A DNA stretch of 64,000 nt from Neophaeotheca triangularis (Eukaryota), in contig BAAIJX010000019.1 in assembly GCA_054600435.1 (NCBI GenBank), positions 186,001-250,000 on the forward strand, in the 5' to 3' direction. Below the pieces are notes generated by a model. That model was not told where the DNA came from. It was given only the letters and a program-made list of their open reading frames with translations, and searched no databases. Position numbers and translations under genes: made by a program. This document shows positions 11,801 to 54,170 of this stretch, in pieces (position 1 is the first letter of the stretch; every line of letters starts with the position of its first letter).

Positions 11801-12079
11801 ATAGCTTCTCAAGTGAGCCTGTATACTCACTTGGGGTCTGTGCTGCTAGCGCATCTCAGCACGCTCTTGTTCAGCTCTCTAGACTACTCTTCAGCTCCTC
11901 CGAGTCTTCAAAAATCACACCTTCTTACTTTCTCACCGTCTGAGCAAACGAGTCTTGACCAGCTCGCCTCGATCTTCCCAGCTACAACGCCCGCAACTGT
12001 GACAGCCTAAAAGGTCTGTCAAAACAACGCGACCGATCGATAAACTATCACTAGCAACCGTTCTCAGTCCTGAGCTGTC

Positions 12080-15457: not shown

Positions 15458-17296
15458 ATGTCGCCACCGAAGCGCGACGGTGAGGTTCTCCATCATGTAA
15501 ATGGAGAGAACTACAACGACCTATATTCGGGCCTGGTCGACCCGAACAACTCTGGCCACAGCGTGGTCAACAACACCAATACGGGCATCAACTTCAATAC
15601 CAGCATGCTTAGCACAAGACGCCAGGTTGTGAGTGAGACCGTATCTGACTGAAAGACGCTCGCCTTTGCTAACCTCTATTTGAGAAGGCTGGTCGTCTTC
15701 CGTCTTACAGACTTAAGTCTTACTACCTGGGAAACAACGACGACTTGTATCAGCAGCAGCAGCGTCGCGTACGTGACGGCATGAGCCAGTCGTCCTTCGA
15801 CGATCCCAAGTCTGTATCACACCGCATGGCTGTTTCGATATCTACACACGTGAGCTATCTTTCATTCCTCTCATATGTTGTTGCTGCTAATCCAAAGAAC
15901 AAAAGGGCTCCTTATTGGCCCCAGCGTCGCAAAACCCTTTCGAGGAGTTTATCCACCAGGACCAATTCGAAGATGCAGGCCGCAACGATACCCAGTCTCA
16001 AGACCATCTCGAACCCAATTTTCAGCGTCCCAACACAACATTCCAAACGCCTTCGCATCCCGTGCAGAAGCAAGTCCATAGCATGAGCAGCTACTTACCG
16101 ATCGCTGCCGCGTCAACTACAGCTCTCCATCATCCTCAAGTCAACGTCGCATCGATTCCTCGCCCCCCTAAGCCCGATAACATGACTTTCGGCTCTCTCT
16201 TGCAGGGCAAGGCCTTCTGGGAACCCACGAATCTTCTTGCGGTTCCCACCGACAAGGACGATATTTCGGTTGTGATTGCCAACCAATGGCAACATGTCGA
16301 AAACCTTGCTCGGGCCCTCTCGAGTAAAGAATTCAAAGCCGCTCCAAACACCTGGTTCGATACCACCGGTGCTTTGACGGACAATGAGAAAGCTGCTTGG
16401 GCAAAGTGGCAGACAAACGCTTGCAAGAGGGCCGCGAATGTGTTGGCTAAAAAGCAGAAGAAAGGGGTTGAGTTGAGCTTCATTCATTTCACTGCTCTCA
16501 AGATATTCGAAGCGGTTCTGGAGCTCCACTATCATGGCACCACTCTTGAGAGCGTTGATATGGAGAAGGAAATTCCAGCCTCTGAGCGACTTGATACCGT
16601 GACAAGCGTTCTCAGCGAGTACGCTATCGTGCGTTTCGACACGCTGAACGACGGGTACAGGATCGAACGATTGGTCGCCGGGCCGAATAAGCTCGTCATC
16701 AAGAAAATCGACTTCATGACAAGCAACGGTAAGCGAGATGGCAAGTTCGCGGCGAAGAGTCCAGGGCCGCGAAAGAGGAAGGCCCCAGAAGATACTGATG
16801 GGGATAGGGGAGAGAGTTCGGTAAAGAGGCACAAGAAAGGCAGCGAATGCGAACCTGCCCTGAAGAGGACAGACAAGAGCTTCGGAGTCTTATCGCGAGC
16901 TGCGGGAACAATTAGCAGCTCCCAAATCGGGCGGGGCGGTTTGAAGCAGCATGGGATCCACGGGTTGCCGCGATCGGGACCGCTTGCCCACGGGAGCCAC
17001 CGGTATGAGCAGCAGGCCCAAGCGGAAAGCGACATGGAGCATTCGCATGAGACAACAAGGGCGCCTATTCTGCTGAATGCCGAAGCCCAGGGCGACGTGT
17101 ACGGTCACAACATCCAGCACCATCACACCATGGCTGGCAATCCCCCATACTTCGGCAAAGGCGGCCCGAGCGGCCCAGTACTTGGCTTCATGCAACCATT
17201 TTGGCCGGAAGGGGATGCTGTTGCTGGTGCTGAACGTGTGGTTGGTGGCATAGCGGATGGAGCGACGGCGAACGGCACGAAGTTAGACAGTGCTCG
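15458..17296 (+). CDS. Hypothetical protein, paralog 3, 5' portion (interrupted by the TE nest)
   Basis: ORF 15915.. has the family domain (AWAKWQTNAC...ALKIFEAVLELHYHG...ASERLDTVTSVLSEYAIVR). Tentative upstream exons 15458-15628 and 15688-15849 (GTGAGT/GTGAGC donors, GCTAAC/GCTAAT branch sites; acceptors uncertain). The frame now reads into the Copia LTR and stops at 17357. Confidence 0.75.
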
Positions 17297-17468
17297 TGTT
17301 GATGTGATTGGCCTGAGGCTCGGTCACGCTAGCTTAGGGCTGCACTGGTGGTGTTAGGTGGTCACGTGTTGTGTCACATGACGCGGCTTTGTGAGCCACT
17401 CCTACTTCTTCGTCTTGTCGTAGCTACCTACATACTTTGAATACTATGACACTTCATACCATTCAACA
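17297..17468 (+). repeat. Copia 5' LTR
   Basis: TGTTGA...TCAACA; differs from the 3' LTR at only 4 TG/TA positions. Confidence 0.95.
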
Positions 17469-17480
17469 GGTTATGAGCCC
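17469..17480 (+). promoter_or_regulatory. Copia primer-binding site
   Basis: GGTTATGAGCCC directly after the 5' LTR, a motif commonly seen at this position in fungal Copia elements. Confidence 0.7.
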
Positions 17481-18647
17481 GGGTTTTACGCATTGTTACG
17501 CGCGCTAAAAAAACCCTTCTTATTAGTGTTCATTAACTAGACTACATTACAACGTGGTACGTTACGCAGTATTTCGAAAAACGACGGATTTCAATCCTTC
17601 TTTCGTCTCAACTAGTTTTTTATCGACACCCTATACGGTTTTACCCTTAACGGTAATATGCATTTAGGGACTATAAGATCGACTACAGTAGGTACTTTAG
17701 TAACTTCTTCGAAGGACGGTAGGTTATTAGAACCAAAATTACCGTACTACTAAAGACATAGCCGATTCATATAGAGACACTAGAGTAGATCTTAATAAGC
17801 TATTTAAGCTCTAAGGACCTAAGACCTTCGACAGATAGTACGACGCTATCTAGGACTATTTAACTAATAAACGACTACCTAAAATCGTTAACGGTAAAAA
17901 AGAGAGACTAAAAAGAGAGGCCTTTAGTAATGCTCCCCCTAGTAAGATAAGGGTAGAAGAAGACGAAGCTTTTAAAGAGGCGGATAAGAACTAGCTAGTA
18001 AAGGATACTAGGGCTAAGAACATACTCCGTTCGACTATCTCTAATAAAATCGTCATTAACCTAAAGGGGAAGGACACTACCTATAAGATGTTCATTTACC
18101 TATACTCTATATATAAGCCTAACGGTATCTCATATAAGATAAGTATATAGTATACTTATATACGATACCACTTTAATGGAGTAGACATTACGGACTTCTA
18201 TAATAAATATAGTAAGTGTCTAGATAACATGAAGGGTATTAGTATTAAGTTTCATGAGTACCTTACTCTCTACTAGTTCCTATTCTGTCTTATAGACCAT
18301 TACCTATAGTTTATAGCAAACATTAGGAACTAGCTTCGATAGGCTAAGAGGAGTAGAGGCAAACTACTATTACTAGAAACCGTCATGAGAGATATATGTA
18401 ATGAATCGAAGTAGATCAATAATAGCGGTACTAAGACAGCATTAATAGCTAAGAGTACGTACTCTAGTAAGGGCGATAAAGGTAAGAATAGTAGTAGTAG
18501 TAAAAAGGGCTAAAAGTGCTCTTACTATAGTACCTAACATGACATTAGAGAGTGCTAGAAGAAGCACCCTAAGAAAGTACTAGAGTAGTACCTTAACTAT
18601 AGTAATAGTGAAAAGAGTAAAGGTAAGGGAGTAAAGGGCTCTAGTAA

Positions 18648-19030
18648 TGTCGTGGTGACTCCCGTACTACATTTATAGGCATATAGGTTTTACGGTATTT
18701 ACTTTATTATTACCCCTTTATATACTTATACCTCCCCCTACACTAGTACTTATATCTTAGACCTATCTACTACCTAGACAGACATATATAGAATGAATTA
18801 TAACTACTTGAATTAGCCTCTATATACTATAACTAACCTAACTAATTTCTAACCCCTAACCTATTATTCGTAACTGTTATAAACAATCCCTAATTCTCGA
18901 CTATACCTAATCCCTAACTCTCGACTATACCCGATTCCTAATCCTACTACATTATTCATAACTGTTATAAACAATACCTCCCTAAGCAAAACTAGTCTCC
19001 TAGCTTCTTAAGTGCTCTCGCTACTCGACA
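18648..19030 (+). repeat. Gypsy copy B 5' LTR (383-bp variant)
   Basis: TGTCG...TCGACA; contains two 27-bp palindromes and a 23-bp tandem duplication. Confidence 0.95.
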
Positions 19031-22000
19031 TATTTAGAGCTAAAGGTAGAGCGACTATATATTGTCTTCGTCCTAATAGCCGAACCTATACTCTAGGAAT
19101 TATACTTACTATAAGACTACCCGACTTATAGAACTTACCCTTCGATAAGGGGACTAGAAAAGGGGCTCGATAATGCGATAGTAGCGCTATAGTTAACCCT
19201 AAGAAACCTACTACTCTACCTTACTATTCTCCTACCCTAACGAAACGATAATAGCGGCTTCTAGATAACCTAGACTACTACTTACTACTTTAGCTTTCCT
19301 CGCCCTTACCGTTCTACTTAGCCTAGATGTAGTTATCTATACTATGTAAGGTTTCGGACTGTTCGGTATTATCGCCGAAAACTTAATAGAGCTTTAAAAA
19401 TGTAGAGGCTAGAGTCCCCTATAATGACGCTCGTCTCATTCTAATAGAGGTAAACCCTCTATATACTACTAGAGAATCCGGACCTTTAGGACCTCTAGTA
19501 GAGAAAAGATATCATCTCGGCTATAGATCGAAGAAAGACTATAAGGTACTACTTAAGATTAACTTCGTAAATTCACTACTAAGAATATCGCTTACATTCT
19601 CGGCTTCCTTACTCGGTCTATTACTTATATGTTCTAAGATTCTACTATTTTACTTATACCTCCTCACTATTATCACTATTCCTAGAAAACTAAACAAATA
19701 ACTAAAAATATGTCTAACTCCCCTCTCGACATTTCCCTTACTCTAGAAGACATGTAAGACATAGGGCCTACTACTTCCTCGGCACTATCTACCCCTATAC
19801 TTACCTTAAGATCTAGTAGAGATAGCCCTAGGGCGTCCCTACCGTCGCGTCTTACTAATACCCTAGGGTATGTGATTATAGTACCTCCTCTAAGTCCCTA
19901 TAAGCCTAGGGCGGCCTACTTCGATAGTAGTAACCTTACGAGCTTTATATAGAAGTATAAGAAGATATGTATACGGTTTAGGTTCGACTCCCGTTATATA
20001 GCCGAACTACTCGACAGCTACATTAGTAATGAGGTCTAGGCCTAGGTATTAGACCTTAAGCACGACAGCTCGTTAGTAGACATCTTCGCTACTATAAAGG
20101 TTAAGTTCGGGGATTTCGACTTAGAGTAGCTTACTAGAAGTATAGAAGCACTTATGGGTTTTATAGCTAAGAGTAAAGCCGCTAGCTATCCGAACGGGAT
20201 CCTAGAGTATGTTCGCGGTTTCGAGAGCATTATCTATAAGGCTAAAGATTAGGGGTACCCTCTTAGGGGACTAGAGATTGTAAAGTACTTCCTCTATAGT
20301 TTACCTTAGAACTTATAGGAGCGTCTTATCTAGCGGTTCTAGATTAATCTACTCATGCCTAGTAAGTCTATCGAGTACTAATAACTATTTAGGGCTGTCG
20401 AGGATAAGGTCTATACTAACTAATCCTTAGAGATGTTAAATTTAGTTCATAATACGATAGCCTATATAGAGGCTAGCGAGAAGCCTATCGTGTATATACT
20501 AGTCCCTACTATAGCATTCCTAGCGCCGGCTTTTAGGAGTAAGGGACGTCCTATACCTAATTTCCCTAAACAGCCTACCTCTAAAAAGGAAATAGACGAA
20601 CTAGTAGCTAAGTTTAAGACGCTCAAGTTGAACGCTATAGACCTAGCTATTATAGTTAAGAATGCGGGCTACTATAGATTTACTATGTCTAACATTCTAG
20701 CTAGCGCCGCGACTAATGTCTTCTAGGTAGCTCTATAACCTTCCTTTCCCGAACGGTCTACTTATGCCTCTACTACTACTACCTCTAATTTTAATAACTA
20801 TATACAGTATCCTAGTTAGGGTTATGGCGCTCCTAATACTACCTATAGAATAGCGCTAGAAGGCTACTTTATATATAGTAGCCTATATAGATAGATAACT
20901 TACCCCGGATTTCTCGAGCTTATTAATAAGGGACTCGTGTACTCTAACCTAAGTAGTAAATGTATCTAATAGGGATCTGTTTAGAACCTAGGAGATGAAC
21001 TCTAAAGGCTTTTACGGGAAAAATAGCTCGATGCTATTAAGTAGAAGATTGAATAGAGCGAGAACTAGTTCGTACCTATCGCCGCGTAAGGGCCTATAGT
21101 TCGCTTTATAACTACACTCCCTCTATCATCCTATTCTAACACCTCCGAGGATGAGGACGATACCTCTTTATATCTAATATAGACTCGATCTAGCCTAGGG
21201 CTAGTTCAAGACCCGGACGCGAGAGTGTATAAGAAGCGAGCTACTCCTAAAGTCTACGTAACGAGGCCTAGCGAGTACGAGAAGCTAGTAGATAGCGCGG
21301 CTTATAAGAGAAGCTAGACTATTCCCTACGACTCGCTAATTGATTAGCTAGTCGAGGAAAGGGACACTAATAATAAGGACTAGTAATGGCTAGCGCTACT
21401 AGCGATAAAGTAGCGTACCTCGAGGTATATAAAGCTCCTCGATGTCCTTATCTAGAATTAGTACGATGACGCTACGATACTAGAGATACTCCTTAGCGGC
21501 GATGTTACTATAAACTATATAGATGTCTTAGCGAAGATGCCGGGTATCTAGAAGCTACTATTTAGCCTACTACCTAAGGGGTTAGCTAACGATATATAGC
21601 GAGAAATAGACATGACTACTACATAATAGCGTCTCGCCCGTAAAGCGAAGAAGTCTACTACTAGAGGTACTTCTATGTTGCCTACTATTACTATAGCTCA
21701 TGATTCGGTTAATAGATGTTAATAGAATGCTACTATATTGAACACTACATTACTCTATATAACTACTCGTAACATTAACGATCTTATGGGAGAGGACCTA
21801 GTTTATCATAACGACTCCCTAGTTTACGAGATAAGGATTAGGAAGACTAATATAACTATACTCCTCGACTCTAGCGTAGATGTTAATGTCATGACGAGAG
21901 ACATTACTAAGTGCGCTCCACTACCGATTATAAGGTTACTATCTTCTATTAGTCTAGGTATTATAGTAGCGAACGGAGATGCGGTCACCTTTATTAGGTA

Positions 22001-22382
22001 GGTTCCTAACGCGCCCGTTTAGGTTAGCTAAGTCGTCATTCATATACTAATACTAGTAGTAGAGTAGTTATTAAAACCCTATATCCTCGGAGAGCTATAT
22101 ACCTATCGCGCTTCCCTCGAAGTTCGGAGAAATCCATTAGGTAAAGTCATCTACTAGGTTACTAGCGAGGATAGTTTAGCGACTATAGACTTTATCCCTA
22201 GTATAGGAATTCGTCGACTAGTGGGCTCGGATTCTAAAGCTAGAGACCATTTCTCCCTTAATGGTATTAGTATATATATAGTACATGTAGATCGGAGCAT
22301 ATCCTCTATTCATTCGTTAAAAGGTAGGGCGGACAAGTAGGTTCGATTACTACTACTAATACCTACTAAGAACTAAGCAAAT

Positions 22383-22640
22383 CATTATTCATAACTATTA
22401 CGAACAATCCTACTATTCGCGAAGCGACTAATAATACTATGATGACCCGAGCATTATTCGTAACTACTATGAATAATGCCTCTAGTCATGTAATATCTAC
22501 ATGCTCTACTAACTCCGCGACTAGTACCTAAGTATTGTTCGTAACTACTATAAATAATGTCTCTAGTCATGTAATACCTAGACGCTCCGCTAACTCTATG
22601 ACTAGTACCTAAGCATTATTCGTAACCGCTACGAATAATG
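22383..22640 (+). repeat. In-frame array of 4 palindrome-containing units in the protease-RT linker, copy B
   Basis: CATTGTTCGTAACCG(C/T)TACGAACAATG-like cores at 22383, 22452, 22533, 22614 (spacings 69, 81, 81). Confidence 0.9.
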
Positions 22641-24983
22641 CCCTAGGTAGGGTCTCCTATATATAGAGGTCTAGCATAATAGCGGATAGTGTGAAGCTCT
22701 TATAGAGTGTAAAACCTTTAGAACTTATAGCTCTCGCCTCTAACCCTACCTCACTACTAAAGGAGAATTTCAGTGTTATAACTATAGCTAAACGGAAGGC
22801 GGATAAGGTAGTGCCTATTAACGACTCGAGTACTATCCTGTCCGAAATTCCTAGTAGATAGTTAGATTAGCGAAAGAAAGCTATAGAGCGCTAGATTAAG
22901 AGTATACCGAAAGATCTTATCGCTTACTCCGATTATAATGGCCACTTCGAACCACGATATACACGAGAGCTAAGAGGCTATAGGTTAACCCCGGAGTAGA
23001 TAGTAGAAGTAATAGTTAACATCATACTCTTACTAGAAGAACGTTAGCTATTCGAAGCGATATTAATAGCCTATAAGCTAGTCCTTACATAGGACTTTAA
23101 GGAGTGTAGTATAATCTATGAAGACATATACCCTCCGGTTAAGATAAGAATAGTACCCTATAAAGCCTAGTAGGCCAAGACATATCCTATGCCGAAAGCT
23201 TTATCTAGGGAGCTCGTCGAGATATTAGAAGACTGACTAAAAGCCGGTGTCCTTAAGTATAGCTAAGGACAATACTAGAATCCTTAGTTTCTAGTTAAAA
23301 AGAAGAACAGCAAATATAGGCTAATTAACTTAGCTACTATCCTAAATTCAGTTACGGTTCGAGATGCTATAATGCTACTAGATCTCGTAAGCTTCGTCTA
23401 CTATATTATGGGTAGACTACTCCTCTCACTATACGACGTTTTCTCTAGATATGACGAAATCCGGTTACACGAAGAAAGCCGCGACATGATAGCCATCATG
23501 ACTCTATTAGGGCTCCTAAGGCAGATAACTTTACTAATAGGCTAGATAAACTTAGTAGCCATCTTTTACCGGGTCATGATGTAGATACTCATAGTACTAT
23601 ATCTACATAATACTATCCTATATGTTGACGACATCATCGCTATTAGCGACTATAGTGACTCCTAGGGCGACCCTAACCCTTTACCTAGTATTAGGCTCCT
23701 AGTCTATAACTATATCTAGAAACTAGACCGACTACTCGCGGACATAGAGCGAGCTAGATGTACTGTCGCTATAGGGAAATCGTACTTCCTTTCCGAGGAG
23801 CTTAAGGTTATCAGCTTTATATACATGCCTAGTAGTACGAAGCTGTCGCGCTTAAAGGTTAAAGCTATCACTAAGTAGACTAAGTATCGTATATTACGTG
23901 AAGCTCGTAGCTTCATTAGAATATGTATATACTATAAGTAGTTGATCTAGGGATTTATATAGTATATAAGACCGATTATTACGCTTATGTAGAAAGATGT
24001 GCCTTTTATCTAGGGACCGGAACAAGCCGTAGTAATAGTAGACCTAAAAGAGTAGCTAATGAAATTCCTAATCGTAGCCCTAGTTAAATATAGCGTAGAC
24101 ATAGGCTAACTAGTTCTTATAGTCGATACATGTAGTACTAGCTAGGGACTTTACTTATAACAAGAAGTTACTAGCGCGAAAAGACGAGTTATCTAGTATA
24201 ATAGTAGTCTCTAGAACGAGAGCGAGTAGAAATATAATGCTATTAAGCTCGAGTGCTAGGCGTTAATAATCGCTCTTAAAAGGTTACAGCTATACCTTTA
24301 TAGTACGAGGTTTATGGTCGAAATAGATACTAACATGCTAGTTGCCTAGCTTAATAAGGTTGCCTTAGACGTGCCGAATACTATAGTAACTCGCTAGCTA
24401 GCTTAGATTTAACTATTTGATTTCGACGTGCGACACGTCGCTAGTACGAAAAACATCATCGCTAACGGCCTATCCCGGAAGTCTAATAGGCTAGCTAATA
24501 CTAAAGATATCGATAACTAGGTTAATATCTATCTCGACAGCATTTCAGTAGGGCTACCCCTAGCGCTAGTCCTAACGTATACTAGTAACGAAAATCGAGG
24601 ATCTACCTTTGTAGTAGGGTTACTCCTAGTATAGGGCCTAATGCCTACGAGTAGCGAAGACGGAGCTTTAACTCCTTCTAATAGGGAGGGGGAACCTACT
24701 AACGACAATGTGCTCGACTCTACCTACTCTAAGTACTCTCAAAATGTCGCCCGCTAGCTCACGACTATACGAAGGCCTATAGACCTATCTAAATCGGAGT
24801 TCCGAGCATTTAAGCGACAAGTAATATGATTCCTAGTCCATAATGACTAACTATTTCGCCATATAAATAGGAACTAGCTATTAACTCGTATAGTAGATAG
24901 AGAGCGGAACTGACTACGAATAATAAAGGAACTTCATGATAAGGGTAGTTACTATAGAAGAGAAGGGACATATCGGAAAGTGG

Positions 24984-25343
24984 TGTCGAACGGCGAGAGT
25001 ACTCGAGAAGCTAGGAGACTAGTTTTGCTCGGGGAGGTATTATTCATAACGGTTACGGACAATGTAGCGGGATTAGGAATCGGGTGTAGTCGAGAATCAG
25101 GGATTGTTCGTAACGGTTACGAACAATGCATTAGGGGTTAGAGATTAGTCAGGTCGGTCATAGTATATAGAGGCTAATTTAAGTAGTCGCAATTCATTCT
25201 ATATGTGTCTGTCTAGGTAGATAGGTAGGTCTAAGATATAAGTACTAGTGTAGGGGGAGGCATAAGTATGTGAAGGGGTAATAATAAAGCAAATACCGTA
25301 AAACTAGTACGCCTATAAATGTAGTACGGGAGTCACTACGACA
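24984..25343 (-). mobile_element. Inverted solo LTR (360-bp variant) of the same Gypsy family, in the integrase of copy B
   Basis: Reverse complement of LTR 28551-28910. TSD GTGG 24980-24983 / GTAG 25344-25347 (RIP change). The empty site is visible in copy A near 42150. Confidence 0.95.
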
Positions 25344-26614: not shown

Positions 26615-27010
26615 TATTATTCGTAACTATTATAAACAATACTAGGCCCGACACCGCGCCTTCTCATAACACCTTAGTAATGCTAACGAGACTCGTTACA
26701 TTATTCGTAACTATTATGAACAATGCTAGGCCCGACACTACGAATCCTACCTATAGTGTTATCGCTATAGCCGCGTTATATTATTCATATCCTTTACGAA
26801 TAATGTCTTCCGTTACCTCATAACACCTTGTCGTCACATTATTCATAACCGTTATGAACAATACTAGGCCGTTACCCTATAGTGTAGTGTTATCGCTACG
26901 GCCGCGTTATATTGTTTATATCTATTATGAATAATGTTACCCGTTACCTCATGACACCTTAGTAGTACGCGCCGAGCTCGTCATATTATTCGTAACCGTT
27001 ACGAATAATG
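26615..27010 (+). repeat. Array of 6 palindromes with 31-57 bp spacers downstream of integrase, copy B
   Basis: Cores at about 26615, 26699, 26779, 26837, 26910 and 26984. Confidence 0.9.
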
Positions 27011-27140: not shown

Positions 27141-27150
27141 CTATAAAAGA
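27141..27150 (+). promoter_or_regulatory. Putative internal TATA box for ORF3, copy B
   Basis: CTATAAAAGA followed by a CT-rich leader; the same motif is at ~43823 in copy A. RIP can create TA dinucleotides, so this is tentative. Confidence 0.5.
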
Positions 27151-27302
27151 GGCCTCCTCTTCTACTCTACTCCCTCTACCTCTCCTCTCTCTCTAATAGT
27201 AACCACTACTACTACTATTACTCCTTCTTCTCTTTCTTATACCAAGACATTATTAACACTAACTATACTATACCTAGCTAACTAGCTGTTATTAGTACTA
27301 CT

Positions 27303-28550
27303 ATAAGAACCTTCGAGTAGTTTAGCTTCACTTCTAGATAAGCCTTAAAGTAGCTACTCCCTCCGACCTTTACGACCTCTTTAACCTTATCGATACCTCT
27401 AGTACTTACTACTCTAATACCTCCGTCCTTTAGTGTCTATACCTACTTCCTTACTTCACATTCTCCTAAACCTACGACTTTACTAACACCTTTTCACTTT
27501 AATACTAACACTAACACTAATACTAATACCGACACCTAACACATCTCTATGACATACTAAGTAACTAACTCTACTTTTCTTCTTCTCCTTACTTTCACAT
27601 CTCTCTCTCTCTCTCTTTCCTATAGTTAAGATTAAGATTGCTAACTATAGTACCTAAGTAGTCTACTCCGAAGCGTCTACATATAGGTTCCTAAGCTAGC
27701 TCTAGATTAGGTAGTTCGAATGAACCCGTAGCTCCTAAAAGCCTATGCCTTACTCGTAGTAGCTAGGCTACTACGCGCCCTACCGCTACCTTAGCCGCGC
27801 TTACGACTACGACTACGACCGTATCCGCGCCTAATATTACTATAGTAGCGAGGTCTACCGATATGAGCGTCTACCGAAACTAGGGAGTAACTAACGACTA
27901 GAGAGCTCCTATACTCGACATATAGCGATACACCTTGAGCTTTTCTAGTATATAGCTTAAAAACACTATAAAGGAGATGCTATAAAAGATCACTACGATG
28001 ACTAACCTATGCGCCCGAGACGCTATATAGCTCGCTATACTTAAGACAGTACATAAAGCTAGTAAAGACTAGGACATATTAGTATATATAGTAGATAACT
28101 ATATATGAAGCGACTCTATATAGGCCCTAAAAAGAGCTAAGTTTAGGAAGGTTAAAGATATAGCTACCTATAGCTGTCGCGACCTATACATTACTCGAAA
28201 GGAGAACTTCCTCTCTTCGTGTAGGCTAGTTAATGCCGCCGAAGCCGTCGCTTCGGAAACCATTAACCGTATCTTTATAGCTCCGGAGAATGTGTCCTAG
28301 GGATTTATCGATCTCGCTAAACATACCTAGACATCCGAGTAGACATTCTAGAAGCTACGTACTACTACTAGCATCTAGCTTATGTATAGGCTTATTAAGG
28401 AAACTCCTATAGGTTAACCGACTAGTAGGAAAGGGAAACCACTCTACGCGTTCTTCTATACTAAGGCCGACTTTAATCATGTAGTAGGTATAGACTAGAT
28501 ATCTAAGTTTACGACTAAGCGTACTACTAACGAGCTATAAGACATAGTAG
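27303..28550 (+). pseudogene. ORF3 of copy B, N-terminal part (split by insertion of copy A)
   Basis: Colinear with 43985-45230; resumes at 47781 after the TSD. Confidence 0.75.
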
Positions 28551-28910
28551 TGTCGTGGTAACTCCTATACTACATTTATAGGCGTACTAGTTTTGCGGTA
28601 TTTGCTTTATCATTACCCCTTCACATACTTATGCCTCCCCCTACACTAGTACTTATATCTTAGACCTACCTACCTACCTAGATAGACACATACAGAATGA
28701 ATTACGACTACTTGAATTGGCCTCTATACACTATAACTAACCTAACTAATCTCTAACCCCCGACGCATTATTCGTAACCGTTACGAACAATCCCTAATTC
28801 TCGACTACACCTAATTCCTAATCCTACTACATTGTCCGTAATTGTTATGAATAATACCTCCCTAAGCAAAACTAGTCTCCCGGCTTCTCGAGTACTCTCG
28901 CTATTCGACA
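28551..28910 (+). repeat. Gypsy copy A 5' LTR (360-bp variant)
   Basis: TGTCG...TCGACA followed by the same TATTTAGAGC junction as copy B. Confidence 0.95.
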
Positions 28911-31900
28911 TATTTAGAGCCGAAGGTAGGGCGATCGCATATTGTCTTCGTCTTAATAGCCGAACCTACGCTCTAGGAATTATACCTACTATAAGACTAT
29001 CTAACTTATAGAACTTACCCTTCGATAAGGGGACTAGAAAAGGGACTCGACAACGCGATAGTAGCGCTACGGTTAACCCTAAGAAACCCACTACTCTACC
29101 CTACTATTCTCCTATCCTAACGAAACGATGATAGTAGCTTCTAGACAACCTAGACTACTACTTACTACTTTAGCTTTCCTCGCCCTTACCATTCTACTTA
29201 GCCTAGATACGGTTGTCTACACTACATAAGGTTTCGGACTGTTCGGTATTATCGCTGAAAACTCAATAGAGCTTTAAAATTATAGAGGCTAGAGTCCCCC
29301 GTAACGACGCCTGTCTCATTTTAATAGAGGTAAACCCTCTACACATTACTAGAGAATCCGGACCTTTAGGACCTCTAGTAGAGAAAAGATATCATCTCGG
29401 CTATAGATCGAAGAAAGACTACGAGGCACTACTTAAGATTAACTTCATAAATTCACTACTAAGAACATCGCTTACATTCTCGGCTTCCTTACTTAGTCTA
29501 TTACTTATATGTTCCAAGATTCTACTGTTTTACTTACGCCGCCTCACTATTATTACTATTTCTAGAAAACTGAATAAACAACTAAAAATATGTCTAACTC
29601 CCCTCTCGACGTTTCCCTTACCCTAGAAGACATATAGGACACGGGACCTACTACTTCCTTAGCACTATCTACCCCTACGCTTACCCTAGGATCTAGCGGG
29701 GACGGCCCTAGGGCGTCCCTACCGTTACGTCCCGCTAATACCCTAGGGTATGTGATTACAGCGCCTCCCCTAAGTCCCCACGAGCCTAGAGCGGCCTACT
29801 TCGATAGTAGTAACCTTACGAGCTTTATATAGAAGTATAAGAAGATATACATGCGGTTTAGGTTCGACTCCCGTCGCGTAGCTAAACTACTCGACAGCTA
29901 TGTTAGTAACGAGGTCTAGGCCTAGGTATCGGACCTCGAGCACGACGGCTCGTTAGTAGGTATCTTCGCTACTATAAAGGTTAAGTTTAGGGATTTCGAC
30001 TTAGATTAGCTTACTAGAAGTGTAGAAGTACTCATAGGTTTCGTGGCTAAGAGTAAAGCCGCTAGCTATCTAAATAGGATCCTAGAGTACGTTCGCAGTT
30101 TCGAGAGCATTGTCTATAAGGCTAAAGATTAGGGGTACCCTCTTAGGGGACTAGAGATTATAAAGTACTTCCTCTATAGTTTGCCTTAGAATTTGTAGGA
30201 GTATCTTATCTAGTAGTTCTAGATCAATCTACTTATACCTAGCGAGTCTATCGAGTACTGATAACTGTTCGGGGCCGTCGAGGACAAGGTCTATACTAAC
30301 TAATCCTTAGAGATATTAAATTTAGTTCATAACGCGATAAACTATATAGATACTAGTAAGAAACCTGTCGTGTCTACACTAGTCCCTACTATAGCATTCC
30401 TAGTACCGGCTTTTAGGAGCTAGGGATGTCCTATACCTAACTTCCCTAAACAGCCTACCTCCGAAAAGGAAATAGACGAACTAGTAGCTAAGTTTAAGAC
30501 GCTTAAGTTAAACGCTATAGACCTAGCTATTATAGTTAAGAATGTAGGCTACTACGGATTCACTATGTCTAACATTCTAGCTAGCGCTACGACTAATGTC
30601 TTCTAGGTAGCTCCTTAACCTTCTTTTCCCGAACGGTCTACTTATGTCCCTACCGCTACTACCTCTAATTTTAACAACTACATGTAGTATCCTAGTTAGG
30701 GTTATAGCGCTCTAAATGCTACCTATAGAACGGCGCTAGGAGGCTACTTTATGTATAGCGGCCTATATGGATAGATGACTTACCCCGGATTTCTCGAGCT
30801 TATTAATAAGGGACTCGTATACTCTGACCTAAGTAGTAAACGCATCTAATAGGGATCTGTTCAAAACCCGGGAGATAAACTCTAAAGGCTTCTATAGGAA
30901 AACCGGCTCGATACTATTAAGTAGAAGATTGAATAGGGCGAGAACCGGTTCATACCTATCGCCGCGTAAGGTCCTATAGTTCGCTTTATGACTATACTCC
31001 CTCTATTATCCCGTTCCGACACCTCTAAGGACGAGGACGATACCTCTTTATATCTAATATAGACTCGATCTAGCCTAGGGCTAGTTTAAGACCCGGATAC
31101 GAGAGTGTATAAGAAGCGAGCTACTCCTAAAGTCCGCGTGACGAGGCCTAGTAAGTACGAGAAGCTAGTAGATAGCGCGGCTTATAAGAGAAGCTACACG
31201 ATGCCCTACGACTCGCTAATTAATCGACTAGCTAAGGAAAGGGACACCGATGACGAAGACTAGTAATAGCTAGCGCTACTAGCGATAAAGTAGTAGGCCT
31301 CGAGATGTACGAAGCTCCTCGATATCCTTATCCGGAATTAGTACGATGACGCTACGATACTAGAGATACTCCTTAGCGGCGATATTACTATGAACTATAT
31401 AGACGTCTTAGTAAAGATACTAGGTGTCTAGAAGCTACTATTTAGCCCGCTACCTAAGGGGCTAGCTGATAATGTATAGCGAGAAATAGACATGACTACT
31501 ACATAAAGACGTCTTACCTACGAAGCGAAGAAGTCTACTACTAGGGGTACTTCCGTGTTACCCACTATTACTACTACTCACGATTCGGTCGATAGGTAGT
31601 AATAGAATGCTACTACGTTAAACACTACATTACTCTATATAACTACCCGTAATATCGACGATCTTATGGGAGAGGATCTAGTTTACTATAACGACTCTCT
31701 AGTCTACGAGATGAGGATCGGAAAGGCTAACGTTACTATACTCCTTAACTCTAGTACAGATATTAATGTCATGACGAGGGACGTTACTAAGCGCGCCTAA
31801 CTACCTATTATGAGATTGCCGTTATCTATTAGCCTAGGCATTATAGTAGCGAATAGAGATGCGGTTACCTTTATTAGGTAGGTCCCTAACGCGCCTATTT

Positions 31901-32262
31901 AGGTAGACTAAGTCGTCATATATATACCGATACTAGTCGTGGAATAGTTATCGAAACCCTATATCCTTAGAGAGCTATATACTTACTACGCTTCCCTCGA
32001 AGTGCGAAGAAACCTATTAGGTAAAGTCACCTACCGAGTTACTAGCGAGGATAGTTTAGCGACTATAGACTTTATCCCTAGTATAGGGATTCGTCGACTA
32101 GTGGGTTCAGATTCTAAAGCTAGAGACCACTTCTCCCTTAATAGCGTCGGTATATATATAGTACATGTAGATCGGGGCGCGTCTTCTATTCGTTCGTTAA
32201 AAGGTAGGGTAGATAAGTAGGTTCGATTACTACTACTAATACCTACCGAGAACTAAGCAAAT

Positions 32263-32601
32263 CATTATTCGTAACCTTTATGAACAATCCTACTATTCGC
32301 GAGACGACTAATAACGCGACTAGTACCTAAGTATTATTCGTAACTACTACGAATAATGCCTCTAGTCACATGATATCTAGACGCTCCGCTAACTCTATGA
32401 CTAGGACCCGAGCATTATTCGTAACTACTACGAATAATGTCTCTAGTCACGTAAGACCTAGGTACTCTACTAACTCCGCGACTAGGAACTAAGCATTGTT
32501 CGTAACCGCTACGAATAATCCCTCTAGTCACATAAGACCTAGGCACTCTACTAACTCTATGACTAGGACCTGAGCATTATTCGTAACTACTACAAACAAT
32601 A
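32263..32601 (+). repeat. In-frame array of 5 palindrome-containing units in the protease-RT linker, copy A
   Basis: Cores at 32263, 32332, 32413, 32494, 32575; one more 81-bp unit than copy B. Confidence 0.9.
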
Positions 32602-34572
32602 CCCTAGGTAGGGTCTCCTACATATAGAGGTCTAGTATAATAGTGGATAGTGTGAAGCTCTTATAGAGTGTGAAACCTTTAGAACTTATAGCTCTCGCCT
32701 CCGACCCTACCTCACTACTAAAGGAGAATTTCAGTGTTATAACTATAGCTAAATAGAAGGTAGACAAGGTAGTGTCTATCGACGACTTAAGTACTATCCT
32801 GTCCGAGATTCCTAGTAGATAGTTAGATTAGCGAAAGAAAGCTATAGAGCGCTAGATTAAGAGTATACCGAAAGATCTTATCGCTTACTCCGAGTATAAT
32901 AGCTACTTCAAACCGCGATATATATAAGAGCTAAGAGGCTATAGGTTAACCCTAGAGTAGATAGTAGGAGTAATAGTTGATATCACGCTCTTACCGGAAG
33001 AATATCGGCTGTTCGAAGCGATATTAGTAGCCCGTGAGCTAGCCCTTATATAGGACTTCAAGGAGTATAGCATAATCCACGAAGACATGTACTCTCTAGT
33101 CAAGATAAGAATAGTACCCTATAAAGCCTAGTAGGCCAAGACATATCCTATACTAAAAGCTTTATCTAGGGAGCTCGTTAAGATGTTAGAAGACTAACTA
33201 AAAGCTAGTGTCCTTAAGTATAGCTAAGGACAATACTAGAATCCTTAGTTTCTAGTTAAAAAGAAGAATGGTAAACATAGGCTAATTAACTTAGCTACTA
33301 TCCTGAATTTAGTTACGGTTCGAGATGCTATAATGCTACTAGATCTCGTAAGCTTTATCTACTATGTTATAGGTAGACTACTCCTCTCACTATATGACGT
33401 TTTCTCTAGATATGACGAAATCCGGTTACATGAAGAAAGCTACGACATGATAGCTATTATGACTCCATTAGGGCTCCTAAGGTAGACAACCTTACTAATA
33501 GGCTAGATAAACTCGGTAGCTATCTTTTGCCGAGTCATGATGTAGATACTCATAGTGCTATATCTACATGACGCCGTCCTATATGTCGACGACATCATCG
33601 CTATTAGCGACTATAGTGACTCCTAGGGCGACCCTAACCCTTTACCTAGTATTAGGCTCCTAGTCTATAACTATATCTAGAAACTAGACTGACTACTCGT
33701 AGACATAGAGCGAGCTAGATATACTATCGCTATAGGGAAATCGTACTTCCTTTCCGAGGAGCTTAAGGTTATTAGCTTTATATACACCCCTAGTAGTACG
33801 AAGCTGTCGCGCTTAAAGGTTAAAGCTATCGCTAAGTAGACTAAGTGTCGCATATTACGTGAAGCTTATAGCTTCATTAGAATGTACACATACTATAAGT
33901 AGTTAATCTAGGGATTTATATAGCGTATGAGACCAATTATTGCGCTTATGTAGAAAGATGTGCCTTTTATCTAGGGACCGGAATAAGCCGCGGTAATAGT
34001 AGACCTAAAAGAGTAGCTAATGAAATTCCTAATCGTAGCCCTAGTTAAGTACGGCGTAGACGTAGGCTAACTAGTTCTTATAGTCGATACATGTAGTACT
34101 AGCTAGGGACTTTACTTATAACAAGAAGTTACTAGCGCGAAAAGACGAGTTATCTAGTACGATAGCGGTCTCTAGAATGAGGGCGAGTAGAAATACGATA
34201 CTGTTAAGCTTAAGTGCTAGGCATTAATGATCGCTCTTAAAAGGTTATAGCTATACCTTTATAGTACGAGGTTTGTAGTCGAAATAGATACTAACATACT
34301 AGTTACCTAGCTTAATAAGGTTACCTCGGACATACTAAATGCCATGGTAACTCGCTAGCTAGCTTAGATTTAACTATTTGATTTCGACATACGACACGTC
34401 GCTAGTACAAAAAATGTTATTACTAACGGCCTGTCCTAGAAGTCTAATGGGCCGGCTAATACTAAAGACATTAACGACTAGGTTAACGTCTATCTCGACA
34501 GCATTTCGGTAGGGCTGCCCCTAGTACTAGGCCTAACGTCTACTATTAGTAGAAATAGAACACCGGCCTTAG

Positions 34573-34991
34573 TGTTGCGATCCTACAAGGTAGTCTTATA
34601 GGTAGAGCTCATAGCAGAAGAGGAGAGATATCGAAGAAGGCTAGTAAGGGTGTTTCCTTTATCATAAGGATTTCAAAGATACGTGAAGTGTCGCTATAGA
34701 CCTTTTAGTAAGATTGTAATATGAGTTAAACACAAATCTCTACCTAGGAAACATCGCTAGCTATATACATAGGAGATTCGTGTTAGATTAGTCCTTAACT
34801 AATCCATCGTGCTTAGGATTAGACTGATCCTAAGTGCCCTAGCTTAGACTTAGTCTAAGTCTAAGCGAGTATACTTAGTTAAAGTCTAAGCGAACGTCTT
34901 AGCTAGTTCTAAGATCACGTGACTAGTAAGCTTTAGGGTTAGACCCTAGCTTAGACTAGGGATTCTAGTTCTACTTAGCTTAGCTGTAACA
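34573..34991 (-). repeat. Chromovirus 3' LTR
   Basis: Direct repeat of 41296-41714; adjacent to the polypurine tract. Confidence 0.95.
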
Positions 34992-35075
34992 CTATCCCCC
35001 TTTCAGCCTAGCTTCGTCCTCGAAGCCTGATAAAGTTCCGTTATTCCCCACATCGTTTTGTTATCAAGTTTCGCG

Positions 35076-35675
35076 ATGTCTTCTACCCTATCCCATAAAC
35101 AGTAACGTCTTAATCTTTCGGCTAAAATCGAGAAGTCTAGAACAACTAACATAGCACCCTGTTTAGCCTACCGATCTACGAGGAAATCGCCTTTAGCCGA
35201 ACTAGTACGATGTGTGATTAGTGCTCGATCTAGTCAGTGTTCGGAATATATATGTAAAGGGTATACTAAGTGTAACATAAAGCTTAGTTGTCCTAAGTAG
35301 GAAAAATGGAGAGATTCATGCAACAAACTGTAATAGTAGTTAGAGGAGTGTAAGGAGGAGGAGCTCAAGCTTTTATAAAAGCTACACGAGCGTTATTCGA
35401 AAAAGTTGCGGTTATAGAAATAGCTTCGTCATGCTAAGGGTCGCACGGAAACCGCGGTGTCTAGAGAGTTAGAGGATTTAGAGTAAGTAGATCGGTTAGA
35501 GGAAGATCTCTTAGGTCTAGTTAACACTAGGGTTGAGGTTGTATAGCGTCTAGGCTTTATTAGTATTCTAGAGATGTCGACGTAGGACTAGAGTGCTATC
35601 GACAGCTTAGATCTTCCTTCCGAGCTTTAGGATTTCGGTCCTAATAATATTGTTGTAGGGCCTTCTAGTAGTTAA
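35076..35675 (+). pseudogene. Antisense accessory ORF of the chromovirus: 199 aa, six-Cys Zn-cluster-like motif plus coiled coil, RIP-disrupted
   Basis: 600 nt from ATG to TAA without frameshift. Internal stops are all TAA/TAG, revertible to CAA/CAG/TGG. Motif C-x2-C-x13-C-x8-C-x2-C-x7-C: four Cys intact, two read TAC/TAT. Confidence 0.7.
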
Positions 35676-38600
35676 GTAAGTTGTCCTTAGGTTCCTAAGT
35701 GTTTTTACTTATGTAGTAACCTTTCCATTTCACGAGGTAGTTCTGACCGTCCTTATCTAGAATCTTTTCGACCTCGTACTTAGCTTCTTCCTCTAGTAGA
35801 TCGTAGTAAAAGGTGTCTTAGATTAGTATTTCGGGGTCTACTAGTTCGAGCAAGGATATATGGAAGACTAGGTAGATTCTAGCATCTTTTAGAAGTTAGA
35901 GGAGGTAGTTAACCTTTCCTCTTTATTCTTCAACTAGAAACGGTCCGACTTTGACATGGTCTAGTTTTCGTGTTCGTCTCCTTGTCTTCAGGTTTTTCGT
36001 GAGTAGGTACACCTTATCCCCCTTCTTAAGCTAAGGTGCCGTTTTGGAGTCCTTATGTCTTTATGACTCGAGTCGTCGCTACGACTATGTGATTTTGTCT
36101 TTCGCCTATTCATGTGCTTCCTATAGCTACGAAGACGTTTGTAGGGCTCTTTCCGCGAGTGGTCCTGGCTTTAGTTCTATGAAAATGTTAGGGTCTTTTC
36201 CGAAATTTGCGTAGAACGGAGTTATGCCTGTTGTCTCGGAGGCATTATTGTTGAGTGCGAGTTGTACTATAGGTAAGAGTACTACCTAATTGTCCTGAGC
36301 GTAATTGACGTAATATCGTAAGTACGTTTCGAGGGATTAGTTTGAGCGTTCTGTCTATCTGTCGGTTTCTAGGTGAAATGCTGTTGATAGCTTATGTTTC
36401 ACTCCGATTGCTAAAATCAAGGTCTTCTAGTAGTTAGATGTGAAGAGCTTGTCTCTGTCCGTAATCAGAACCGTAGGAATGCCGTAGTATCATACTAATC
36501 TATCGAGAACAAGGTATCCGAGTTCCTCTATAGTGATTATCTCGTTATAGGGAACGAAATGTGAATACTTCGTGAGTCTATCGACCATGACTAGAATTGA
36601 ATCATAGTCCTTGCTTATTAACGGGTCCTTAGATCTTAGTAACTTGACGATAAAATCCATTATGACCTCGTTCTATAGTAGATCTAGTGGCTCCTAGAAT
36701 TGTAGGTTTCTATACTTAGCATGTCTCGAAGCTTTGTTTTGTTAGTAGCTCATACATTTCTTGATGTACTCTAAGACCTTCTGTCTCATTCTAGGGAACA
36801 CGAAGTTGCGTCTAATGTGTTCTACTGTTCTAGCGATTCCTAGATGTCTATTAGTAGGTCTATCGTGGTAGTCCTAGATGTACTAGCATTCCTTCTCGTT
36901 TAGAACCCTAAACTTCCTATGTTCGATAGGGAATTCTTCGGTGTTATCCCTAAGTACTCGTAGTACTAAGTTAAATTCTTAAGGGTTAGCGCTTAGGCTT
37001 CCGTCCTTATTAACTTTCAGTATATAGTGTTACTATAGAAGGTGCCCTTCTATGTAGTCGCTTCTTCTACTTAGCGCGTTAGCGCGCCTATTGTCTTTTC
37101 TAGGAGTGTAGACTATGTCGAACTTATATTGTCCGAGTAGCTCTAACTATCTACATTGTTAGTGTGATAGTTCCTTAGTAGTTATGAAATATTGCAGGTT
37201 TTTGTAATCTAAGTAAATAGTCAGTCTAGTTACTCCTTCACAGTATACTCTCTAGTATCGCAATACTATAACGATTACGAGCAGTTCTTTGTCGTAGATC
37301 TCGTAATTCTGTTCTGCTAGTGACATCTTCCTTAAGAAGTAAGCGATAGGGTGTCATTTGCTTTTAACCTCCTATGTGAGGCAAGCTCCTATTGCTCTAT
37401 TAGAGGTATCTGTTTCGATTTAGATAGGTCTCTTAGGGTTAAACATCCTAAGCGTAGGGATAGTCGTACATGACTCCTTAAGCTTATCGAAGGATTGTTG
37501 TTAAATCTTTCCTTATACGAATAGTGTGTCCTTCTTCGTGAGGTTAGTTAGAGGCGTAGCGAGCCTTGAGTAATCCTACATGAATTTCTAATTATAGTTA
37601 GCTAATCCGAGGAATGCTTAAATGTCCTTAACTGACTTAGGTATTAGCTATTCCTCGATCGATTGAGTTTTCTTCAGGTCTATTTAGATCCTAGTAGTGC
37701 TAATCATAAAGCCTAGAAAGTCGACTTCCTTCTTATAGAACTCGTACTTCTCTAGTGCTATTCTAAAGTCTACTTTGTTAAGTCGTTCGAACACTATGTG
37801 TATGTCCTTAGTATACTGTTCTCGTGATCCTTTTATGAAGACTAATATGTCGTCGATATAGGCGATGATAGTGATGTCGAGTAGGTCTCGTAGGATGTCG
37901 TTAACGAGTTATTAACAGGTTGCTAGGGCATTCGTGAGTCCTATAGGCATGACCTGGAATTCGTAAAGTCCGTAGCGCGTTCGAAAAGCTGTTTTCCACT
38001 CTTCCCCCCTTACTATTCTAACTAAATAGAATATATCTCGGAGATCGACTTTAGTGAACTAGTGTGAACTAGTGAGTTAGTCTCTTATCTTATCGATATT
38101 AGGTAGTAGATAACGGTTTTTGGTGGTGATCGCATTAAGTCGTCTGAAATCGATAACTATTCGTAGTTTTCCTCCTTTCTTCGGAACGAAAAATAGTGGT
38201 GAAGCGGCTAATGAAGTGGAGGGTCGAATCCATCCTTTCTTCATTTTTTTATCTAGCTATCGTTATTACTCTTCGAGCTCTTTTTCAGATAGCGCGTAAA
38301 GTGGCCCCTATAGTATCTTCATACCGGGCTAAATGTCGATTCGGTAGTCCTATAGTTAATGTCTAGGTAGAGCGGCTACTCCTTCCTCTTCCTAGAAAAG
38401 GCGCTTCTATTTCCTAAATTCTCTAGGGATATCCGAAGGTACGTGACTTCCTTCCTTAACTCTTACTTACTAGTCTGTTTAGGCTAGTTCGGTACCTATA
38501 GAGTCCGATCTAATTCGTATTAGTATCGTAGTCGATTAGCGATATGTTTCGTTGATCTACCTTCTCTTATCTACTGTCGATCGCTACTAGCGCGTAGGGT

Positions 38601-41295: not shown

Positions 41296-41714
41296 TGTTA
41301 CGATCCTATAAGGTAGTCTTACGGGTAGAGCTCGTAGCGGAAGAGGAGAGATATCGAAGAAGGCTAGCAAGGGTGTTTCCTTTATCGTAAGGATTTTAAA
41401 GATACATGAAGTGTCGCTATAGACCTTTTAGTAAGATTATAACATAAGTTGAACACAAATCTCTACCTAGGAAACATCGCTAGCTATATACATAGGAGAT
41501 TCGTGTTAGATCAGTCCTTAACTAATCTATCGTACTTAGGATCAGACTAATCCTAAGTGCCCTAGCTTAGACTTAGTCTAAGTCTAAGCGAGCATGCTTA
41601 GTTGAAGTCTAAGCGAACGTCTTAGCTAGTTCTGAGATCACGTGACTAGTAAGCTTTAGGGTTAGACCCTAGCTTAGACTAGGGATTCTAGTTCTACTCA
41701 GCTTAGCCGTAACA
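41296..41714 (-). repeat. Chromovirus 5' LTR
   Basis: Followed on the minus strand by CTTTGAA rather than a TGG tRNA primer-binding site. Confidence 0.95.
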
Positions 41715-47776: not shown

Positions 47777-47780
47777 GTAG

Positions 47781-54165: not shown

Positions 54166-54170
54166 GCTCG

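Follow-up and report, generated by a model that had tools for sequence, protein, structure and literature searches.

A 27-bp palindrome reiterated in three places of a fungal Ty3/Gypsy retrotransposon family that carries a predicted PhyH-like dioxygenase gene

Reiterated protein-binding words in transposons are known from few cases, namely the Su(Hw) sites of Drosophila gypsy, the motifs of the VANDAL/VANC system and the sites of the foamy-virus activator Tas. In gypsy, as described in PMC3384341, Su(Hw) is a host protein and the function of the site cluster is insulation. In VANDAL21, a Mutator-like DNA transposon of Arabidopsis, the protein VANC21 binds a short motif that has accumulated in tandem within its own transposon; according to the account given in PMC5735166, this motif is 9 bp long, asymmetric, in a single orientation and non-coding, and both its binding and the hypomethylation were shown by experiment. 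Foamy viruses are vertebrate retroviruses whose DNA-binding activator Tas is needed for the promoter of the long terminal repeat (LTR) and for an internal promoter alike (PMC8670036), the second regulatory region lying upstream of 3′ accessory genes and having the same recognition element as the LTR (PMC8670036, PMC13220597). Here, we describe a 27-bp palindrome that is reiterated in the LTRs and in two internal places of a degraded Ty3/Gypsy retrotransposon family of Neophaeotheca triangularis, studied in a 64-kb stretch of contig BAAIJX010000019.1 (hereafter the window, with positions counted from its first letter), and that accompanies an accessory gene, open reading frame (ORF) 3, for a predicted PhyH-like dioxygenase. 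The element belongs to none of the three systems above.

Whereas the Su(Hw) sites of gypsy form one non-palindromic cluster in the 5′ untranslated region, the palindromes of this family form three clusters, including those of the LTRs. Both elements are of the Ty3/Gypsy kind and have reiterated sites, here presumed ones, for one sequence-specific protein (PMC3384341); in both, sites lie in a transcribed internal region. The likeness to VANDAL21, within what PMC5735166 reports, lies in a short family-specific word accumulated in one transposon family and rare elsewhere, in tandem-repeat arrays whose copy number differs between copies and in an accessory gene beside the transposition genes; the differences are that our element is a retrotransposon, that its word is a 27-bp palindrome with one array coding, that the role of this word is deduced from sequence, and that the product of ORF3, PhyH-like and with no detected DNA-binding similarity, is not recognisable as a VANC homologue. 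With foamy viruses, as portrayed in PMC8670036 and PMC13220597, it has in common the putative second regulatory region upstream of a 3′ accessory gene, but promoter, binder and transactivation, established there with Tas, are only presumed here; moreover, a third cluster, in the linker between protease (PR) and reverse transcriptase (RT), is present here, unlike in foamy viruses. No description of palindrome arrays in fungal LTR elements, or of a PhyH-type dioxygenase in an LTR retrotransposon, was found in open-access texts.

The palindrome, judged by its sequence, is a real, non-random and family-specific feature with an unusual layout in three places. Once corrected for repeat-induced point mutation (RIP), its consensus reads CATTGTTCGTAAC-C-GTTACGAACAATG (27 bp). 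With up to 3 mismatches allowed, a search for the exact consensus yielded 13 strand-matches, which fall at 9 places, and 100 shuffles yielded 0; for its RIP-tolerant IUPAC form and up to 2 mismatches, the figures are 55 strand-matches and 29 places (shuffle mean 0.00). A RIP-aware scan, in which C>T and G>A were counted as RIP, returned 29 places with 0–2 other mismatches, none in the 64 kb with 3 or 4, and next-best words with at least 5, so that the set is cleanly separated. All 29 palindromes lie inside copies of a single RIP-degraded family, represented by two elements, A and B, and by a solo LTR, and the same scan found no site in the host DNA, the Copia element or the chromovirus (34571–41716) of the window, as an earlier note on this DNA had held. 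That note had also counted 13–14 palindromes per element and two per LTR: element A has 14 (the inserted solo LTR left out) and element B 13, and all five LTR copies have two apiece, including the solo LTR, which it had not listed. Among the sequencing runs, X1 alone, probably the source, contains the stretch; runs X2 and X3, of the same organism label, gave no match at 80% likeness, which may be a false negative. The contigs of run X1, compared with element A over 1459 contig pieces, show 1725 transitions for 131 transversions, an excess which is the mark of RIP, and the comparison also shows that the A/B family is multi-copy in this run.

One palindrome cluster stands ahead of each reading unit of the element, i.e., gag-PR, RT-RNase H-integrase (RT-RH-IN) and ORF3 (Table 1). 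In the LTRs, the two motifs occupy LTR positions ~216–242 and 280–306 (B type) and are followed by 54 CT-rich bp up to the LTR end; a 24-bp tandem duplication between them (18878–18941 and 50268–50324) sets A-type LTRs, where they are spaced 88 bp, apart from B-type and solo LTRs, where they are spaced 64 bp. Some X1 contigs join an LTR palindrome directly to a pol-ORF3 palindrome (joints 18981>26907 and 26658>18950); either the assembly crossed over at the word common to both, or these copies are truly rearranged. The second cluster, which the earlier note placed inside pol with 4–5 copies, does have 4 copies in A and 5 in B, but it is located in the PR-RT linker, in the RT frame, as seen from the matches of a polyprotein relative, P0158 (2596 aa), to PR and to RT-RH-IN on either side. 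Both linker spacings, 69 and 81 bp, are divisible by 3, the RT frame stays open if stops due to RIP are disregarded, and each linker palindrome translates as ALFVTATNN in this frame. With 81-bp units and 81–82% matches, the linker array is a tandem repeat, and since P0158 has ~385 residues between PR and RT, the linker is long and probably repeat-tolerant. A CCTATAWAWAGAGGYC box thought to follow both internal arrays was dropped as a candidate, for it follows the linker array only (3 matches vs 1.0 expected); the box near ORF3 is one base shorter.

The third cluster, between pol and ORF3, begins shortly after the integrase frame decays and is non-coding, its spacings not being multiples of 3. 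Here, the array upstream of ORF3 announced by the earlier note was found, with 6 copies in A and 4 in B, yet the gene behind it is not the short ORF of that note, as it spans ~1000 codons (roughly 950–1000 aa). Past the last palindrome, TATAAAAG and a CT-rich tract might constitute a core promoter, and they are separated from ORF3 by a leader of ~700 bp in both elements. The pol-ORF3 spacers contain extra copies of the half-centre CCGTTAC, three in A (26797–26950) and one in B (43618–43630), which may be isolated half-sites, and the leader of both ORF3 copies includes a TAACAC-type microsatellite (27499–27536 and 44181–44223).

The main argument for a function of the palindrome is that its core was kept amid drifting DNA. 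Across compartments (305 palindrome pairs, core positions 1–27, 30-bp flanks), purine/pyrimidine identity amounts to 0.97 in the core vs 0.53/0.56 in the flanks, and nucleotide identity to 0.79 vs 0.27/0.31, in agreement with the earlier note, for which the flanks were unlike between compartments. Similarity begins and ends at the core edges: positions 12, 15 and 27 are the only ones of the core to fall below a purine/pyrimidine identity of 1.0, and two pyrimidines invariably stand 3′ of it. Within the pol-ORF3 arrays, likewise, the cores are 0.97–0.98 alike, while the spacers reach 0.71–0.75, against 0.65 ± 0.06 for shuffled spacers, and Tandem Repeats Finder detects the linker arrays only, the pol-ORF3 arrays escaping as tandem repeats. 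These contrasts between core and flanks and between core and spacers are what suggests that the surrounding DNA drifted and the core did not. The possibility that the internal arrays are LTR remnants was rejected, as their flanks bear no likeness to those of the LTRs. Finally, the layout is common to both elements and to all five LTRs, which implies that the master copy from which they transposed already had it.

At face value, some of these features might be neutral by-products, a hairpin-prone word having been spread by replication slippage or by template switching of the RT, with copies that look alike merely because they are young. The linker array is indeed a young tandem repeat, array copy number varies among genomic copies (between A and B, and in X1 contigs that skip 81, 105 or 126 bp), the LTR spacer contains the 24-bp duplication, and the X1 contigs joining LTR and pol-ORF3 motifs, if they are not assembly cross-overs, would be of the same kind. 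Yet slippage carries flanks along, and between compartments the flanks are random up to the core edge; in the pol-ORF3 arrays, the spacers are near random and the cores intact; and the layout, shared by both elements and all five LTRs, goes back to the master copy. A neutral origin thus appears improbable to us.

Our preferred reading, to which we assign a probability of about 0.4, is that the palindrome is a reiterated binding site for a dimeric sequence-specific DNA-binding protein, and that its clusters would act as enhancer modules, serving the LTR as well as a putative internal promoter of ORF3. The binder would contact double-stranded DNA as a symmetric dimer, with a host transcription factor as the default candidate, and the palindrome would be reiterated as an enhancer or upstream activating sequence (UAS) module in three places: two copies per LTR, ahead of the CT-rich LTR end; 4–5 copies in the repeat-tolerant PR-RT linker, which would serve as an internal enhancer; and 4–6 copies lying 130–530 bp ahead of TATAAAAG and the CT-rich leader, which would drive ORF3, the 3′ accessory gene. 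A word of 26–27 bp kept among unrelated flanks, its centre included, fits a symmetric factor better than the bare need for a hairpin. Also in favour of this reading is the variable copy number of the arrays, which differs between A and B and among X1 contigs, a trait of VANC target arrays as well (PMC5735166). The earlier note had already proposed a dimeric-protein site, and the conservation of the whole word at the sequence level in three places speaks for this part of its proposal; the other part, in which ORF3 is the binder, fares less well (see below). The perfect symmetry of the word must be qualified, given that position 16 is C in 7 of the 9 linker copies, where the centre is asymmetric.

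Several points weigh against a role as enhancer sites. At 27 bp, the site would be a long one by the standards of eukaryotic transcription factors. The LTR copies could sit in R/U5, i.e., be transcribed, instead of lying in U3. RIP (CA>TA) may have created the TATA-like boxes, TATAAAAG included, and clearly did so in the case of one apparent LTR TATA: the box at LTR position ~150 was discarded as an artefact, the least mutated copy reading CACATACAG. Instead of having its own promoter, ORF3 could be expressed from a spliced LTR transcript, considering the pyrimidine tract and AG at ~44285–44306. A coding region, such as the linker, is moreover an odd place for an enhancer. Yeast Ty1 has enhancer elements in its coding region and transcription-factor sites downstream of its LTR, as would be the case here, but in Ty1 several host factors have distinct, individual sites close to the 5′ end, in place of a tandem array of one palindrome in the pol linker. 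Lastly, all copies have undergone RIP, so that no present-day function can be read from them. The palindrome may resemble HMG-box (AACAATG) and Myb (TAACGG) sites, and the TTACCCG of some spacers a Reb1 site, but these resemblances were not used as evidence.

Alternatively, the palindromes might act in RNA, as 12-bp stem-loops or, the word being self-complementary, through pairing between two RNAs, with a part in packaging, dimerisation or strand transfer, or in controlling translation at ORF junctions. We consider this rather unlikely, even if it has several observations on its side. Four of the six folded copies, the best preserved, are stable (−9.7 to −14.9 kcal/mol; z −4.3 to −7.0), whereas the other two do not stand out from shuffles (z −1.5 and −0.4). 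The internal copies are all necessarily within the full-length RNA, and the clusters precede gag, the PR-to-RT frame change and ORF3. In both elements, the RT is in frame −1 relative to PR, although P0158 has one continuous frame, and a TAA of the PR frame falls within the first linker palindrome. A frameshift signal is nevertheless hard to make out: no slippery heptamer exists 5–9 nt upstream of the first linker palindrome, and the sole candidate found, GTTAAAA (~22316–22322), was rejected because the folding of what follows is no better than that of shuffles (z −1.1). A search of positions 17000–55000 against Rfam (E ≤ 0.1) returned 0 matches. Covariation, as expected of a conserved RNA helix, does not show either, all measures being within the shuffle range (paired cells 85.9% vs 86.5% when shuffled; score 0.112 vs 0.111), a test that is weak because variation among the palindromes is mostly RIP that followed inactivation. 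Variants predating RIP, i.e., T>C at position 16 (7/9 linker copies), T>C at position 7 (LTR motif 2) and A>T at position 11 (three pol-ORF3 copies), disrupt pairs without compensation, and a hairpin role does not require the identical 26 letters, loop included, that are seen in all compartments.

The chromovirus offers a comparison for both readings, since each of its LTRs has two palindromes of its own, GCTTAGACTTAG-N-CTAAGTCTAAGC (perfect 12+1+12) and GCACTTAGGATYAG-N-CTRATCCTAAGTGC (14+1+14). These are similar in size to the palindrome of the A/B family and odd-centred, with another sequence, as if shape mattered and not sequence, which favours RNA hairpins. They also lie ~40 bp upstream of a TATA-like TGTATATAGC box in the orientation of the element, a UAS-like position suggesting that LTR palindromes are a regulatory habit here; a structural habit would fit them as well. 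Neither internal copies of these palindromes nor an ORF3 are found in the chromovirus; LTR palindromes therefore do not require an ORF3, and what distinguishes the ORF3-bearing family in the window is the internal arrays, not paired, long, odd-centred LTR palindromes. The necessity for ORF3 to bind LTR sites is weakened accordingly. The chromovirus LTR is, in addition, rich in CTTAG/CTAAG words.

ORF3 itself encodes, as far as sequence similarity tells, a PhyH-like 2-oxoglutarate (2OG)-Fe(II) dioxygenase domain at its C-terminus. A profile of the three ORF3 pieces of the window matched 360 proteins at E ≤ 1e-3, 19 of them at E ≤ 1e-30 (best 1.7e-39), mainly of 800–1000 residues, the aligned part being the C-terminal ~350 residues. 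PhyH (PF05721) was matched by 11 of the 64 homologues scanned (7 at the curated cut-off, best 36.1 bits) and by 17 of the 45 alignment members (E ≤ 1), among which no second family recurs, while the three atlas clusters nearest to the ORF3 domain in a language-model look-up are all PhyH (scores 0.95–0.96). The HxD...H + R signature is invariant or nearly so in the family, in the form of FRHIDxN (H620, D622), LPHGS (H720) and R730. In contrast, the copies of the window have lost parts of it through RIP-type changes, reading FRYIDLN in B, FRHINLN in A and LPYST in both; as these changes affect iron-binding residues, both copies must now be inactive, and RIP also accounts for the lack of any Pfam match for the window copies themselves. 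The homologues include an "uncharacterized protein" from Rhinocladiella mackenziei, and a scan of viral contigs for relatives gave 70 pattern matches, none of which was confirmed. A 21-bp in-frame repeat of ORF3 (48147–48234) has undergone expansion in A, where it has 4.2 copies, more than in B.

Accessory dioxygenases of the 2OG-Fe(II) type have been described in other transposons: orchid Ty3/Gypsy elements contain an AlkB-type domain, a demethylase of N6-methyladenosine (m6A) (PMC9289625), and DNA transposons of fungi contain TET/JBP genes, no retrotransposon encoding a TET/JBP enzyme having been found in the 2025 survey as reported in PMC12730594. In those accounts, the enzymes are proposed to counter silencing or to modify the element's own nucleic acid (PMC9289625, PMC12730594). 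ORF3 differs in matching PhyH, not AlkB or TET/JBP, and in belonging to an ascomycete-like RIP genome. For TET/JBP, there was no Pfam match among the 64 homologues, nor among the first 25 of the 27 families listed for the 45 alignment members (E ≤ 1).

The earlier note had suggested that ORF3 possibly binds the palindrome. In an updated form of this idea, the contact would be made by the N-terminal part or by an invariant CxC...CxxH motif that, along with helical and acidic regions, lies N-terminal of the PhyH-like domain, and the dioxygenase would thereby reach its own family, either to transactivate it, like Tas, or to erase silencing marks from it, like VANC. This proposal is not supported, the PhyH-like domain being the sole recognisable one and no known DNA-binding domain being apparent, and we hold it to be very unlikely. 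What speaks for it is the layout. The internal arrays occur in the ORF3-bearing family only, the ORF3-less chromovirus having LTR palindromes alone; an array directly upstream of ORF3 would permit a positive loop; ORF3 is integral to the element in both copies, where it reaches the polypurine tract; and the CxC...CxxH motif and the long helical and acidic regions are kept in the family. In addition, both VANC21 and Tas, as presented in PMC5735166 and PMC8670036, respectively, provide precedents for an element-encoded protein acting on its own reiterated sites. No domain speaks for it, however: Pfam revealed no DNA-binding domain in the 64 homologues or the 45 alignment members, NCBIfam had no match for the 7 homologues submitted, a PDB sequence search returned nothing below E 0.19, and the atlas look-up of residues 340–560 yielded nothing. 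PhyH-type enzymes, for their part, act mostly on small molecules or proteins. Furthermore, the homologues look free-standing, none seen being fused to pol, and the closest pol relatives found are devoid of an ORF3-like part, P0158 consisting of gag-PR-RT-RH-IN only.

Going one step further, ORF3 and the arrays might form a self-addressed anti-silencing module, in which the PhyH-like dioxygenase would be drawn to its own palindromes, either directly through the CxC...CxxH motif or N-terminal half or through a dimeric adaptor, and would erase repressive DNA, RNA or chromatin marks. Such a module would parallel VANC or Spm-TnpA in a retrotransposon, with the eraser enzyme as an integral part. The palindromes of the chromovirus may hint that family-specific "address label" palindromes are common in this genome, yet we regard the module as a long shot.

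The elements discussed so far belong to a 36.7-kb block at ~40% G+C, with host-like DNA at ~53% G+C on both sides (1–17295 and 54167–64000). Self-comparison, LTR alignment, Pfam scans with X at stops and the reading of junctions resolve this block (17296–54166) into a four-level nest, i.e., Copia > Gypsy A > Gypsy B > chromovirus, and in addition a solo LTR of the A/B family, in reverse orientation, that interrupts the integrase region of A. The Ty1/Copia sequence occupies 17296–18647 and 50413–54166; element A is inserted in it, and element B lies within the ORF3 of A and itself harbours the chromovirus, so the two related elements are nested and not side by side. The LTR pairing agrees with this order, both A LTRs being 383 bp long with an 88-bp motif spacing and both B LTRs 360 bp long with a 64-bp spacing. 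Each insertion has a short target duplication (for the A/B family, GTAA for A, GTAG for B and GTGG/GTAG for the solo LTR), and the 4 bp bordering the three insertions of this family all follow the pattern GT(A/G)(A/G).

The A/B family is a ~12-kb Ty3/Gypsy retrotransposon, now dead through RIP, and no ORF of at least 120 codons is left between 17.3 and 54 kb. Its assignment follows from direct LTRs (360/383 bp) reading TGTCG...CGACA with 4-bp target duplications, and from the pol order PR-RT-RNase H-integrase in both elements, where tblastn with P0158 places PR and then RT-RH-IN. Pfam matches to RT_RNaseH were obtained in A and B (E 2e-12 and 1e-11), while Integrase_H2C2 is weak and limited to B; the pol relatives carry RVT_1, RNaseH, H2C2 and rve. 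A purine run (AGGGAGGGA / AGAGAGGGA) adjoins both 3′ LTRs, and no tRNA-type primer binding site was recognised downstream of the 5′ LTR.

Table 1. Features of the window, in order of position (PR, protease; RT, reverse transcriptase; RH, RNase H; IN, integrase)
Feature	Positions	Strand	Details
Outermost Ty1/Copia	17296–54166		RVT_2; 174-bp LTRs at 17296–17469 and 53993–54166
Element A 5′ LTR	18648–19030	+	383 bp, TGTCG...CGACA; palindromes 18862–18888 and 18950–18976, spaced 88 bp
Element A PR region	21852–22196	+	Position mod 3 = 0; tblastn, P0158 residues 1028–1143, E 3e-5 (small database)
Element A linker array	22383–22640	+	4 palindromes; starts 22383, 22452, 22533, 22614; spacings 69/81/81 bp
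Element A RT, RNase H, IN N-part	22730–24973	+	Position mod 3 = 2, i.e., −1 relative to PR
Solo LTR in IN region of A	24984–25343	−	Palindromes 25038–25064 and 25102–25128; target GTGG/GTAG
Element A pol-ORF3 array	26615–27010	+	6 palindromes; starts 26615, 26699, 26779, 26837, 26910, 26984; spacings 84/80/58/73/74 bp
TATAAAAG, then CT-rich tract	27143–27200 (A); from 43825 (B)	+	133 bp past last palindrome; read directly
Element A ORF3, N-terminal part	27662–28546	+	Cut by insertion of B
Element B 5′ LTR	28551–28910	+	360 bp; palindromes 28766–28792 and 28830–28856, spaced 64 bp
Element B PR match	31732–32076		P0158
Element B linker array	32263–32601	+	5 palindromes; starts 32263, 32332, 32413, 32494, 32575; spacings 69/81/81/81 bp
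Element B RT-RH-IN match	from 32736		P0158
Nested chromovirus, outside the A/B family	34571–41716	−	RVT_1, RNase H, H2C2, SH3_Tf2-1, Chromo
Chromovirus LTR palindromes	34809–34837, 34842–34866, 41532–41560, 41565–41589		Two per LTR, 5 bp apart
Element B pol-ORF3 array	43428–43692	+	4 palindromes; starts 43428, 43512, 43592, 43666; spacings 84/80/74 bp
Element B ORF3	44342–47416	+	One frame with X at stops, to polypurine tract; C-terminal third is the predicted PhyH-like domain
Element B 3′ LTR	47417–47776	+	Palindromes 47632–47658 and 47696–47722
Element A ORF3, C-terminal part	47777–50029	+	FRHINLN, LPYST
Element A 3′ LTR	50030–50412	+	Palindromes 50244–50270 and 50332–50358

Outside the window, a 25-mer of the palindrome had 0 matches in viral contigs and its 19-mer core 3 single matches in prokaryote genomes, judged to be at chance level. 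The RIP-tolerant 25-mer reached 72 metagenome loci with one exact match each; when re-scanned, 68 of them had one site and four (L011, L019, L035 and L052) two weak sites, and none of the 72 had an array. These sites are mainly AT-only palindromes in low-GC contigs, the best agreeing in 22–23 of 27 letters (10 of the 72 loci viewed in detail). At L011:1738–1764 and L012:97–123 (~51–53% G+C), a near-identical 27-bp palindrome, CATTRTTCATAACTATTACGAATAATG, is followed by the same cccagc flank; with one copy per contig and surroundings that bear no relation to the retrotransposon, it could be an operator-like site belonging to another organism.

Altogether, with this element a fungal LTR retrotransposon would join the few transposons known for reiterated protein-binding words; it has a very long symmetric word before each of three reading units and an accessory dioxygenase, the latter being the most interesting by-product of the analysis. 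If the palindromes are host transcription-factor sites only, they make an ordinary, though neat, case of enhancer reiteration. If palindromes and ORF3 work together, they would offer a testable route to resistance against retrotransposon silencing in RIP- and methylation-competent fungi, and the unannotated ORF3 family of 360 clusters would gain its first functional context.

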